Assembly (NCBI GenBank): GCA_964652335.1
Contig: CAZZDL010000017.1
Coordinates: 1 to 17,401, forward strand
Reading direction: 5' to 3'
DNA: 17,401 nucleotides
DNA from: Candidatus Micrarchaeota archaeon
GTDB taxonomy: Archaea > B1Sed10-29 > WALL01 > WAMD01
Shown here: one piece after another, positions 1,044-15,312 of the stretch
Layout of the letters: each line of letters begins with the position of its first letter
Position numbering within the stretch: the stretch's first letter is position 1
Made by a program: the position numbers and the translations under genes
Notes under the pieces: generated by a model
What the model was told of the DNA's origin: nothing
What the model saw: the letters and a program-made list of their open reading frames with translations, nothing else
Databases searched by the model: none

Positions 1044-3233
1044 ATGGAGAACAAAGCTATTGCGTTCACATTTATATCCTTATTTCTAATATCGCTAGCC
1101 TTTGCAAATTACACTGTTAGCTTTTCACCAGACAACTTTTCATTTTTCCCAAATGAAACTAGAGATTACACAGTCAAGCTAGTGAACAATGACCACGCCT
1201 TCAATGCAACTGTTACAATTAAATCCCTAGACACGACCTTGTTCCTAGTGAATAATAGTCAATCTGTAAATATAGAAATAGTCAACTGGGGTGTAGGAGA
1301 CGCATTCAACATACCAATAAACATAACCACGGCAGTAAGCGCAAATTTTAGTGATTCTGCAAATCTAAAAATAAACATCTACGACGAGGACAATGACTCA
1401 GATGTATACACTAGCTACAAGGAAGTTTCAATAGTAACACCTACCGGGTTGACTTACAGTCTAAACGCTAGTTTATCTGATGTTTCCACTCTAACTATTA
1501 TCGTTTTGTTTAACGATGATAGGAACTCAACAGAAATGAATGATGCATTAGTAAAAGACCTATTTGACTCATGGGCCAATGTAACTGCCAATGAAGAATT
1601 AATAGCATCAGGTACAAGTGACAATCTCACTTGCAAACTAGATCTCATAGGAAAAATAGGAAAAGCCGAACTTAACTACGGAGTAAACTATTCAACTGGA
1701 AGCCTTAACGAAAAGGCAAGTATAGAACTAGCCTATGAGCTGCAGTTAAACGCAACAGCCACATATCTAGGAGATATAAACTATTACTATCCACTAACTG
1801 AACCAGTAAAATCTGGAACATTAATTTGCGTTGAGGGGAATGTTACATACGATGGAGTATTCCCTCTAGGTTATTTTGGAGAAGACTATACACTAAACAT
1901 GACAGTAAAAAATAATGTAACCACAACGTATGAACTAACTCCAGATAATTATGGAAAATTCAAAAAATGCTTTAAAGCATCAAACGAAACAGGGAATTAT
2001 ACAATTACAATAGAGGCCATTGGAGTAAATAACTTAAAGGCCAATTGGAGCCATGACTTTAAAGTCAGTAACATAAAGGAATACAAACCAGAGGAAAACG
2101 TTATAACGCCAGAAGTTGCGGTCAGCTTGAGCGGAGATAATTTAACACTCGAAAACAAAAAGAGTATATATCTATTTGGTTGGCTAACTCTGAATGAAGA
2201 TAGCGAGTTTAAACATCTCGTCATTGGAAACAATAAAACATACATAAGCCTGGAACCAAATGGTAAAGTTACAATAAAGCTGAACATCTCAGCTGTTGAA
2301 GGCTGCCCACCAGGAACATACAAAATAAATGGAAAACTAGAAACTGCACTTGGAACAATACCGTTTTCCATAAGCTACAATGTGGCTCCAGAGACTGAAT
2401 CCATTGGTTGCAAGAGGTATTGGGAAAAATCTGAAAACAAAACAAGGATAATTTTGTACGCAGCAAATCCAACTGACTCAAAGGTTTCAATGCTAATAAG
2501 AGATGAAATACCAAAATCAGTAGTAAGTAATCTTAGCTTCTTAGAACCAGATCAGGATAACGAGCAAAGAGCAAAGAACTGTGAAGATGAAACCTGTGTG
2601 ATAGACATTGCAAAATCAACAAAAGACTGCGGTGTATGTGAATCGCAAAAATGCTGGGAGGAATGCATAAATGCATATTTACAATCTCCAGGAAACAAAA
2701 CCTACCCAATAATATTCATGCAAAAACCAACAGTAATAAAAAACGATCCTGTGGTCGCTTGGAACATAACCTTGGATCCAAATAGCGCATACAAGATAAC
2801 ATATATTATTGAAAACTCAACCAATCCTATGGAATTTCCTGAACCTATGGTGGATTATTCAGAAATTAAAACAATCACTCCGGCTGTCAATCAGACCAAC
2901 GAGACAAATCAGAGCCAATCCGAAGAGACAAACCAAAGTCTAATAGTGTATGAAAAAGAAAACGACCTGTTAATGCCAAGTATAACTGCTGCAATAATCG
3001 TGGCATTGGGATTAGGTATAGTCTTTTACATAAAGTTTAGAAAAAAGATAGAAAAAGAGCTTGAAAAGAGAGAAGGAGGAAGCGTTGAAACCCTTACTAA
3101 GCTAGTGAAACCCGAAGAACCTAAAGAAGAAAAAGAGATAATAAAAGAGGTGAAGAAAGAGAAGAAACCAAAGAAGAAGGAAAAATCCCCTGAAGAGGGA
3201 TTAGACGCCATTGGCGGAACATTCTTCAGATGA
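1044..3233 (+). CDS. Large secreted, C-terminally membrane-anchored surface glycoprotein (S-layer/Ig-like domains)
   Basis: N-terminal signal peptide (MENKAIAFTFISLFLISLAFA), roughly 30 N-x-S/T sequons, beta-rich body, six-Cys cluster, NQT/NET/NQS linker, TM helix (ITAAIIVALGLGIVFYI) and a K/E-rich cytoplasmic tail. Confidence 0.8.
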   Translation: MENKAIAFTFISLFLISLAFANYTVSFSPDNFSFFPNETRDYTVKLVNNDHAFNATVTIKSLDTTLFLVNNSQSVNIEIVNWGVGDAFNIPINITTAVSANFSDSANLKINIYDEDNDSDVYTSYKEVSIVTPTGLTYSLNASLSDVSTLTIIVLFNDDRNSTEMNDALVKDLFDSWANVTANEELIASGTSDNLTCKLDLIGKIGKAELNYGVNYSTGSLNEKASIELAYELQLNATATYLGDINYYYPLTEPVKSGTLICVEGNVTYDGVFPLGYFGEDYTLNMTVKNNVTTTYELTPDNYGKFKKCFKASNETGNYTITIEAIGVNNLKANWSHDFKVSNIKEYKPEENVITPEVAVSLSGDNLTLENKKSIYLFGWLTLNEDSEFKHLVIGNNKTYISLEPNGKVTIKLNISAVEGCPPGTYKINGKLETALGTIPFSISYNVAPETESIGCKRYWEKSENKTRIILYAANPTDSKVSMLIRDEIPKSVVSNLSFLEPDQDNEQRAKNCEDETCVIDIAKSTKDCGVCESQKCWEECINAYLQSPGNKTYPIIFMQKPTVIKNDPVVAWNITLDPNSAYKITYIIENSTNPMEFPEPMVDYSEIKTITPAVNQTNETNQSQSEETNQSLIVYEKENDLLMPSITAAIIVALGLGIVFYIKFRKKIEKELEKREGGSVETLTKLVKPEEPKEEKEIIKEVKKEKKPKKKEKSPEEGLDAIGGTFFR

Positions 3234-3278
3234 CCCTCTTGTCATCATAGTTTCCTCAGCACTCATAAGGCTCATCAT
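3226..3278 (-). ncRNA. Archaeal box C/D 2'-O-methylation guide sRNA (dual guide)
   Basis: Minus strand reads ATGATGA (C, 3278-3272) GCCTTATGAGTG (12-nt guide) CTGA (D', 3259-3256) GGAAACT ATGATGA (C', 3248-3242) CAAGAGGGTCAT (12-nt guide) CTGA (D, 3229-3226). All four boxes are perfect consensus with canonical 12-nt spacers. Confidence 0.93.
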
Positions 3279-3300
3279 CTAATAGCTCTTTGCCTTTTCA

Positions 3301-3308
3301 TATTTAAA
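3301..3308 (-). promoter_or_regulatory. TATA box for the C/D sRNA
   Basis: TTTAAATA on the minus strand ends 22 nt upstream of box C, the spacing expected for a TSS at about 3280. Confidence 0.6.
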
Positions 3309-3364
3309 TAATTATGCAAATTTCCAAATGAGATACAATGCTAACAACATTAAGACAAATCCTA

Positions 3365-3907
3365 TCATCTAACTCTCACCTTCTTCCTTGGACAAAACTC
3401 AATCTCACATCTTTCACATATCAATCCTTTCTTTCTAGTGTCAGGTGTAAATATTTTAACATTCCCTATCCCTGAAACTAGTTCATTCAATTTGTCATGC
3501 GGTATTGGCCTATCATATATCACATAGAAATTTCCATTCACATAGCTAAAAGAAACAATGCTTGCCAAACCGGACAGCTTATCCAAAAACTCTATCGCTC
3601 TATCCGGCGACGCCTCAAACTTAACTACTTCATATCCAATGTCTGGTGCTACCTTAGAAGGATCACCAACAGCGGATAATCCAGAGAAGATTGACCTCAA
3701 AACGAAGTTTCTCCTAACATCCCTTGTAAATGCATAGATGGTTTTCCTATCTACCCCAAGCTTAGAGGCTAGGCTAGACATACTTACATTAACTCCATTC
3801 ACAAAGAATTTATCTCCCTTGACAGATATACCAGAAGATAATAAGAAATTGGCAAGTTTCATCTTCTTCTTTGAATTGCTAAATAATGTATAAATGGCTG
3901 GAAACAT
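3365..3907 (-). CDS. COG2150-type predicted transcriptional regulator (HTH + ACT-like domain) with C-terminal CxxCx4C motif
   Basis: FLLSSGISVKG..FFVNGVNVSMSSLASKLGVDRKTIY (HTH) and VAPDIGYEVV are typical of this archaeal family; ends ICERCEIEFCPRK. Start re-called to ATG 3907, since the track's GTG 3922 lies in the GAGGGGG RBS. Confidence 0.8.
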   Translation of the reverse strand: MFPAIYTLFSNSKKKMKLANFLLSSGISVKGDKFFVNGVNVSMSSLASKLGVDRKTIYAFTRDVRRNFVLRSIFSGLSAVGDPSKVAPDIGYEVVKFEASPDRAIEFLDKLSGLASIVSFSYVNGNFYVIYDRPIPHDKLNELVSGIGNVKIFTPDTRKKGLICERCEIEFCPRKKVRVR

Positions 3908-3947
3908 AAAATCCCCCCTCACTTAATTCAACAAATTTATGGAATAT

Positions 3948-13708: not shown

Positions 13709-13818
13709 GATTATCACCGTTAGGTTTATTGATAATCTGGATAAAAAGCTTTTCTTGGCTTTTGGCAAAAACGGATATTAGGAAAACCATAAAAATAATG
13801 ATTAAGAAAATATCTTCC

Positions 13819-15312
13819 ATGACAGAGGAAAAGAGAACTGGAAAAGCTGAAAGCGAATCAAGAAAACCAATAGAAAATCTTATAGAAGTGAGAATTAAGA
13901 AATTGGAAAAGCTAAGAGACATGGGAATAGATCCTTACCCATATAAGTATGAAAGAGATCACTATGCTGAAGAAGTCAAATCCAAATTCTCTAATGTTGG
14001 GGAAGAACCAGAAGGGAATGTTAGTGTAGCTGGGAGGATAATTGCTTTTAGAGACATTGGCAAAATAAGCTTTGCACACATTCAAGACCAGACCGGCAAA
14101 CTGCAGATAGTTTTCAAGAAGGATGAACTAGGAGAAAGGTATAAACTGTTAAAGTTGTTGGACATTGGAGACATCATTGGAGTTAAAGGACCTGTATTCA
14201 AGACAAAGAGGGGAGAGATAAGTGTCCTGGTTAAGGAATTCCAATTACTAACGAAGTCATTAAGGCCATTGCCTGAAAAATATCATGGATTAAAAGACGT
14301 GGAGCTAAAGTACAAAAAAAGATATCTTGACTTGATAATGAACAGAGAAAGTCTAGAAACATTCTTGAAACGAGCTGTCATTGTAAAGAAAATAAGAGAG
14401 TTCATGGACTCTAAGGGATTCGTAGAAATGGAAACGCCAATACTGGAAAAGGTGTATGGTGGTGCAGCAGCAAGGCCATTCATAACGCACTTAAATTACT
14501 GGGATATGGACGTGTTCCTAAGAATCGCATTGGAGATACCACTGAAAAAATTACTAGTTGGAGGATATGACAAAGTCTATCAAATAGGAAGAGTATTCAG
14601 AAACGAGAGTATAGACTCTACCCATAACCCAGAGTTCACAATGATAGAAGCCTACTGGGCATACACTGATTACAACGATATGATGAACCTAATTGAAGAA
14701 ATGATCAAATGCATTGCAAAGGATGTCATAAAGAAAGATAAGGTAACGTTTAGAGATCGCAAGATAGATCTAACAAAGTTTGAAAAAATGACCATGAGAG
14801 AAGCATTTGAAAAATTCTATGGAAAAGACATTATAGACAAAAGCCTGGACGAGCTAAAGACCATAATAGAAAAAGAAGCAATCCCGTACGACGGGAAGCT
14901 GACCAGAGCAGATGCACTTGACTTGATCTGGAAGCATTATGTAGAAGACAATTTGATAAATCCAGTCTTTATAATTGATTATCCAGAAGAAACATCTCCT
15001 TTATGCAAGCAGCATAGATCCATTCCTGGTTTCATAGAGAGATCAGAATTGTTTATAGGCGGAATGGAGCTAGCTAACATTTATTCAGAGCTAAACGATC
15101 CCATAAGGCAAAGGAAGCTATTAGAGGAACAAGCTAGGGAAAGAGAACTAGGAATAGAAACTGCCCAGCCATACGATAAAGACTTTGTTGAGGCTTTAGA
15201 GTACGGGATGCCGCCTGCCAGTGGAATGGGAATCGGGATAGACAGGCTAGCAATGATCCTACTTGAAAAAGACAGTATCAAAGATGTTATTTTATTCCCG
15301 TTTGTTAAATAG
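13819..15312 (+). CDS. lysS: Lysyl-tRNA synthetase, class II
   Basis: DPYP, OB-fold AGRI...GKISF..IQD.TGKLQ, RPLPEKYHGL, RYLDLI, GGAAARPF, motif 2 FRNESID.THNPEFT and motif 3 EYGMPPASGMGIGIDRL. Start re-called to ATG 13819, because the track start overlaps the divergent promoter region. Confidence 0.96.
   Translation: MTEEKRTGKAESESRKPIENLIEVRIKKLEKLRDMGIDPYPYKYERDHYAEEVKSKFSNVGEEPEGNVSVAGRIIAFRDIGKISFAHIQDQTGKLQIVFKKDELGERYKLLKLLDIGDIIGVKGPVFKTKRGEISVLVKEFQLLTKSLRPLPEKYHGLKDVELKYKKRYLDLIMNRESLETFLKRAVIVKKIREFMDSKGFVEMETPILEKVYGGAAARPFITHLNYWDMDVFLRIALEIPLKKLLVGGYDKVYQIGRVFRNESIDSTHNPEFTMIEAYWAYTDYNDMMNLIEEMIKCIAKDVIKKDKVTFRDRKIDLTKFEKMTMREAFEKFYGKDIIDKSLDELKTIIEKEAIPYDGKLTRADALDLIWKHYVEDNLINPVFIIDYPEETSPLCKQHRSIPGFIERSELFIGGMELANIYSELNDPIRQRKLLEEQARERELGIETAQPYDKDFVEALEYGMPPASGMGIGIDRLAMILLEKDSIKDVILFPFVK

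Follow-up and report, generated by a model that had tools for sequence, protein, structure and literature searches.

A two-guide box C/D RNA predicted to direct wobble methylation of intron-containing elongator tRNA-Met in a reduced-genome archaeon

The window analysed here, a stretch of 17,401 nucleotides, is contig C17 of an archaeal genome (G000; 821 kb, 51 contigs, 96.8% complete), which represents a small DPANN-type, reduced-genome lineage. Relatives in the same phylum, sampled as 31 genomes, are designated G001 onward, and L numbers denote loci. At 3225–3281 the minus strand of the window shows every element expected of a two-guide box C/D RNA, about 57 nt long, with its ends placed from Rfam alignments. 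Read in its own direction, this sRNA consists of the C box AUGAUGA (3272–3278), the D′ guide GCCUUAUGAGUG (3260–3271), the D′ box CUGA (3256–3259), a D′–C′ loop of 7 nt, the C′ box AUGAUGA (3242–3248), the D guide CAAGAGGGUCAU (3230–3241) and the D box CUGA (3226–3229). The coordinates and the D′ guide agree with those of an initial annotation of the same DNA. A TATA-like box, TTTAAATA, precedes the C box by 22 nt (3301–3308, minus strand) and is the putative promoter of the sRNA itself; a box A motif has been described (PMC3491384).

The sRNA is located between two protein genes. The convergent gene on the plus strand (1044–3233) encodes a probable surface or membrane protein of 729 aa with no family over the cut-off, and its final codons and stop overlap the 3′ end of the sRNA in antisense. 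The gene upstream of the sRNA on the same strand (3365–3922, minus) has a weak TrpY-family match, and a similar gene is also found upstream of the sRNA in G002 and G003. In these two relatives a PIN-domain gene is positioned directly downstream of the sRNA (L002:1010–1474 and L003:1011–1490), where it separates the sRNA from the convergent surface-protein gene; it is absent from this place in the window. Elsewhere in the window, a lysine-tRNA ligase (13729–15312) passes the score threshold of the bacterial-type lysS model, though the host is an archaeon.

All four boxes of the sRNA are perfect and follow the order C, D′, C′, D, with guides within 10–12 nt. A strict C/D scan gave four loci in the 821-kb genome and none in the reversed-genome control. 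In another public study, of hydrothermal-vent DNA, a contig covers positions 2900–3600 with two differences, both outside the sRNA, and the guides are identical in two other genera except for one +1 base, their flanks being different. The genome encodes fibrillarin, Nop5, two L7Ae-family matches (not told apart) and the splicing endonuclease, and we infer that the 57-nt sRNA is expressed and assembled into an RNP. The Rfam search of the sRNA gave no family at its gathering score and only sub-threshold C/D matches. The top one is sR41 (RF01126), which scores 28.3 bits where 54 are required and covers model positions 26–53 only; RF02163 (sR-tMet, threshold 50 bits) gave no match at E ≤ 1 in G000, G002 or G003, and none of the 15 matches obtained at E ≤ 1 is to sR49. 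Such an Rfam result would be expected if box-like words had fallen by chance at a gene end, and a guide for rRNA only could be read from an 11-pair site of the D′ guide in the 23S rRNA of G003, the best alternative rRNA target, which needs three G-U pairs. Both ideas are hardly credible in view of the four perfect boxes with an empty reversed-genome control, the guides shared by other genera with divergent flanks, and the covariation of the guide with a tRNA intron described below.

The initial annotation had assigned the D′ guide to wobble C34 of a tRNA-Met(CAU) gene, probably one with an intron, outside the window. Such a gene is present at C27:1332–1444 (minus); its intron, inserted at 37/38, measures 38 nt. 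Apart from the sRNA locus, no other site in G000 shares 10 letters with the D′ target. Since the guide gene is on C17 and the tRNA gene on C27, the guide lies outside the tRNA intron. The bulge-helix-bulge (BHB) motif of this tRNA is canonical (C32:G, U33:G, C34:G, A35:U, then G:C, G:C). On the precursor, the D′ guide pairs with A31–A37 and intron +1 to +4 through 10 Watson–Crick (WC) pairs and one G-U, 11 pairs in all (−14.9 kcal/mol), whereas on the mature tRNA it keeps 8 contiguous WC pairs (−7.8 kcal/mol). The N+5 rule is established for box C/D methylation guides, and position +5 falls on C34 of the precursor, just as had been predicted. The pre-tRNA-Met(CAU) is the best D′ match among all 41 tRNA genes of G000. 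When the D′ guide was shuffled, 186 of 20,000 versions reached 10 WC pairs anywhere in the search set, which comprised the 41 tRNA genes and the 16S and 23S of a relative (8,328 letters).

Some details of the predicted target needed correction. The base next to the D′ box (guide +1) is unpaired, for tRNA position 30 opposite to it is G and not C as had been assumed. At the exon–intron junction, CACTCATA|AGGC was expected and GACTCATA|AGGT is found, with 10 of the 12 letters right. The anticipated pairing of the guide end with the intron start is correct for AGG, but intron +4 is U and makes a G-U pair; the intron of G003 starts exactly with AGGC. A search of G000 with the exact 12-letter predicted target returned the sRNA locus alone. 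The initial annotation had staked its reading on CACTCATAA within a CAU tRNA gene, and no such gene contains it, solely because the guide +1 base does not pair; the target reading holds in substance. Two other 9-letter CACTCATAA matches in G000 were set aside, being not called as tRNA genes, and the one on C9 reads as non-tRNA. The mature stem has an A31–U39 pair in G000. Taken as a whole, the earlier reading of guide and target is largely confirmed, with methylation itself predicted from the pairing.

The tRNA on C27 is the elongator Met, not Ile(CAU) or the initiator. The initiator tRNA-Met is a separate gene with A1–U72 and three G-C pairs, the AUA codon is served by tRNA-Ile(UAU), which is present in G000, and no TiaS domain was found in this genome. 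ARAGORN labels C27:1332–1444 as Ser(CGA), although the sequence reads tRNA-Met(CAU), and G000:C9:28289–28415, given the same label, reads as an intron-bearing tRNA-Thr(CGU). Automatic annotation thus misplaces these introns.

Two other precursors deserve attention as the main target of the D′ guide, namely tRNA-Ile(UAU) at U34 and the initiator tRNA-Met at C34. In G000 the former offers 10 contiguous pairs (−13.9) and the latter 9 pairs (−11.8), and Cm34 occurs in the initiator tRNA of two archaea (PMC7668247). However, tRNA-Ile(UAU) has a G-U pair at +5, a position said to require a WC pair (PMC6009581). In G002 and G003, which have the same guide as G000, its intron starts with TGGC, and in G004 and G007, where the guide has C at that place, with AGGC; hence the Ile intron does not follow the guide. 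For the initiator, the match contains only 8 WC pairs and one G-U. Both were rejected as main targets, a role we consider very improbable for either, and each could be a minor side substrate.

The initiator tRNA-Met gene (G000:C1:51156–51646, L006) is interrupted at 37/38 by an intron of 415 nt, which combines a long terminal stem with a broken reading frame; this frame, which gave no Pfam match over the cut-off, may resemble a homing endonuclease. Intron-bearing tRNA-Ile(UAU) genes occur in many genomes of the phylum (G000:C13:2–112; L097–L099, L101, L102, L106). A GC(T/A)CT-like motif recurs in the introns of these genes, in many cases with ACA after it.

The D guide, to which the initial annotation gave no interpretation, has a clear predicted target in 23S rRNA. 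It makes 10 WC pairs with helix 69 of the 23S of G003, and its +5 position corresponds to E. coli C1920 when the G003 23S is aligned to that of E. coli; among shuffled D guides, 135 of 20,000 match equally well. Because the 23S of G000 is not assembled (the 16S is present as a 5′ part only), the target of the D guide rests on G003. The bacterial methyltransferase TlyA makes Cm1920. Helices 68, 69 and 71 of archaeal 23S have been called methylation hotspots (PMC4644070). The same D guide is found in G002, G003 and G012, so that the Met guide is partnered by a 23S C1920 guide in four genomes including G000, and by a 16S C1402 guide in six others. A layout scan for the Met34 and C1920 combination gave two further records; these carry the same sRNAs as G002 and G003 and were left uncounted. 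As G012 escapes the exact pattern, the scan count is a lower bound.

The phylum provides a comparison of guide and intron. Among the 31 genomes, the elongator tRNA-Met has the 37/38 intron in 12 and lacks it in 12 (two of these calls being based on a 22-letter match only), and the gene was not found in 7. A boxed Met-C34 guide is present in 10 of the 31, and for nine of these the own tRNA-Met was also found. In all nine, the guide makes 10–11 pairs on the precursor versus 7–8 on the mature form, counted beyond guide +1. Intron +1 is A and the guide base U in G000, G002 and G003, while intron +1 is G and the guide base C in G004, G005, G007, G008, G009 and G011. The guide therefore tracks intron base +1 in 9/9 genomes with a change on both sides. 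The guide is found in 9/12 intron-bearing genomes and in 0/12 intron-lacking ones, 11 of which have fibrillarin; the intron-bearing genomes in which it was not found are G001, G006 and G025, at 61–78% completeness. The covariation amounts to a single lineage split and 11 of the 12 intron-bearing genomes belong to one order, so neither it nor the intron contrast is statistically independent.

These comparisons bear on the question of whether the mature tRNA-Met (A31–A38), after splicing, is the substrate of the guide, with the intron match being incidental. The 8 contiguous WC pairs kept in the mature G000 tRNA would allow it, and human SNORD97 and SCARNA97 do base-pair with elongator tRNA-Met at its anticodon stem-loop (PMC6601510). 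In six relatives, however, the guide C stands opposite A38, leaving 7 pairs beyond guide +1, and yet the intron G is matched; the inability of this C to pair with mature A38 argues for the precursor as target. Moreover, none of the 12 intron-lacking genomes yielded a guide that fits the mature junction; the six pattern matches there all fall inside long reading frames and lack a C box. Action on the mature tRNA is thus very improbable.

One guide-pattern search underlying the counts gave 38 matches, 30 of which were inspected with their own loci and 4 more through other loci. A boxed-looking match in G006 was dropped as it has no C′/D half, and other matches in relatives were dropped on inspection as being without box context. 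A second boxed CCCTATGAGT RNA in G004 (L077, G004:C29:42617) has a Met-C34 guide with a different D guide; it may be a paralog or a contaminant and was left out of the guide counts. Extra insertions outside the anticodon loop of elongator tRNA-Met are located in the D arm in G005 (L100) and in the T arm in G004 (L040) and G016 (L049), and are probably non-canonical introns.

We propose, with a probability of roughly 0.87, that the two-guide RNA assembles with L7Ae, Nop5 and fibrillarin and directs the predicted Cm34 on elongator pre-tRNA-Met(CAU) before splicing, together with methylation at the position of 23S C1920. The RNP would melt the anticodon-side BHB helix of the pre-tRNA, the D′ guide would pair across the exon–intron junction and C34 would be methylated according to the N+5 rule; release of the guide would then let the BHB form and splicing proceed. 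The D half of the sRNA would separately methylate 23S C1920. The D′ guide uses the same exon bases as the BHB helix, so the guide-bound and BHB states are mutually exclusive. After splicing, 8 pairs are left to the D′ guide in G000. An order of methylation first and splicing second thus appears from the pairing to apply to the pre-tRNA-Met of G000. Cm34 limits the pairing of C34 to G (PMC7668247), and would help keep Met off AUA codons.

An addition to this explanation may be considered, in which both guides bind the same pre-tRNA-Met, D′ at the exon–intron junction and D inside the intron, and thereby help to keep the BHB from closing before C34 has been methylated. Binding of D′ would open the 5′ hairpin of the intron and expose the D site, the precursor would be kept from its spliceable BHB fold, and the D guide would have two jobs, methylation of 23S C1920 and a grip on a conserved intron motif. 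An 8-pair complement of the D guide is present in 4/4 family introns (G000–G003), with intron-shuffle p values of 0.004–0.009 for each genome, which are not independent because the four introns are kin, and 3 of 5,000 shuffled guides equal the D guide across all four. In G003 the motif is kept 12 nt further downstream despite the changed intron start. The own-intron pairing score of the D guide is 7.5–8, versus 4–5.5 in five genomes with a 16S-targeting D guide (G011 was left out of this scoring). The pairing of the D guide with the G000 intron has a G-U at +5, a pattern of pairing without methylation (PMC6009581), and a non-BHB fold is favoured by 2.8–8.0 kcal/mol in three of the four family arms.

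Several observations weigh against this addition. Eight pairs are short, roughly half of the motif forms a hairpin with the start of the intron itself, which makes a guide-free explanation possible, and the 23S site fully accounts for the conservation of the D guide. G004 and G025 also favour non-BHB folds. A metagenome scan gave four tRNA loci, comprising one intron identical to that of G000, one truncated and two unrelated; the metagenome introns L111 and L114 start with AGGC and lack the motif. We therefore hold the second grip on the intron to be a tentative and rather unlikely extension. If it were real, it would give a testable answer to how methylation stays ahead of splicing, as a built-in device that orders the two. 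A literature search returned no title on the window sRNA or on a two-point intron clamp, and the primary papers and their supplements may describe second-guide pairing.

The three remaining C/D sRNAs from the strict scan map to tRNA-Leu(CAA) C34, 16S C1402, and 23S U2552, G2581 and G2251. The first lies at about C1:51053–51105 (L006), about 50 nt upstream of the initiator tRNA-Met; its D′ guide forms 11 WC pairs at tRNA-Leu(CAA) C34 and shares its final six letters with the Met guide, and its D guide fits 16S C1402. The sRNAs at C12:14909 (+) and C9:16347 (−) correspond to 23S U2552 and G2581, and to G2251, respectively, and no good target was found for the D guide of the latter.

Returning to the preferred reading of a guide for pre-tRNA-Met C34, it would extend guide-directed wobble methylation of this precursor to a reduced-genome archaeon, in which the strict scan counts four free-standing C/D RNAs. 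It would also mark the predicted Cm34 as being among the last modifications retained, and offer a reason for keeping the tRNA-Met intron. As the mechanism is already in print, the main value lies in annotation: the target is wrongly called tRNA-Ser(CGA) by ARAGORN, and the guide goes undetected at Rfam thresholds.

PMC2584109 describes free-standing RNAs that guide Cm34 formation on tRNA-Met with an intron, Pyrococcus sR49 among them, and reports 18 candidates; according to this paper, intron pairing with the guide forces methylation before splicing, and one tRNA-Met gene was located from its guide. Similar to the sR49 class, the window sRNA is a free-standing C/D RNA whose predicted target is C34 of an intron-containing tRNA-Met, with part of the intron pairing with the guide. 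Different from that class, it occurs in a small DPANN-type lineage and is coupled to a 23S C1920 guide. Wobble guides listed for Pyrococcus are those for Leu(CAA), Leu(UAA), Met and Trp (PMC7994747). The sR41 family resembles the window sRNA in another way, in that the consensus of its 3′ guide differs from the window D′ guide at 2 of 12 letters, but the match covers half of the model and the sR41 guide is in the D, not the D′, position. Pyrococcus sR41 has been linked to 23S G1909 (PMC2584109). The 3′ guide of the sR41 model resembles a pre-tRNA-Met C34 guide, with 10 letters identical to that of G004, which suggests that RF01126 may include Met-wobble guides.

Human SNORD97 and SCARNA97 likewise represent C/D-guided Cm34 of elongator tRNA-Met(CAU), but they are eukaryotic, act as two cooperating RNPs and pair with the anticodon stem-loop, not an exon–intron junction (PMC6601510). 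The composite C/D sRNAs of Pyrobaculum have guides swapped between sRNAs (PMC6009581), like the C1920 guide in four genomes versus the C1402 guide in six here. In Pyrobaculum, the second guide lacks a target in about 80% of the sRNAs directed at tRNA, as reported in PMC6009581, whereas here both guides have a target in 10/10 genomes.

The experimentally studied case is sR-tMet of Haloferax volcanii (cited in PMC6601510 and PMC4033218), with which the window sRNA shares the predicted target and the predicted dependence on the precursor. Unlike sR-tMet, it has no RF02163 match, and it possesses canonical boxes and the 7-nt D′–C′ loop; halobacterial guides are described as having degenerate boxes and a D′–C′ spacing of 19–21 nt (PMC2584109). 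Although by score it falls outside RF02163 and RF01126, the window sRNA shows the testable features of the class that guides Cm34 on pre-tRNA-Met, and to judge from these features it probably functions like sR49 and sR-tMet.
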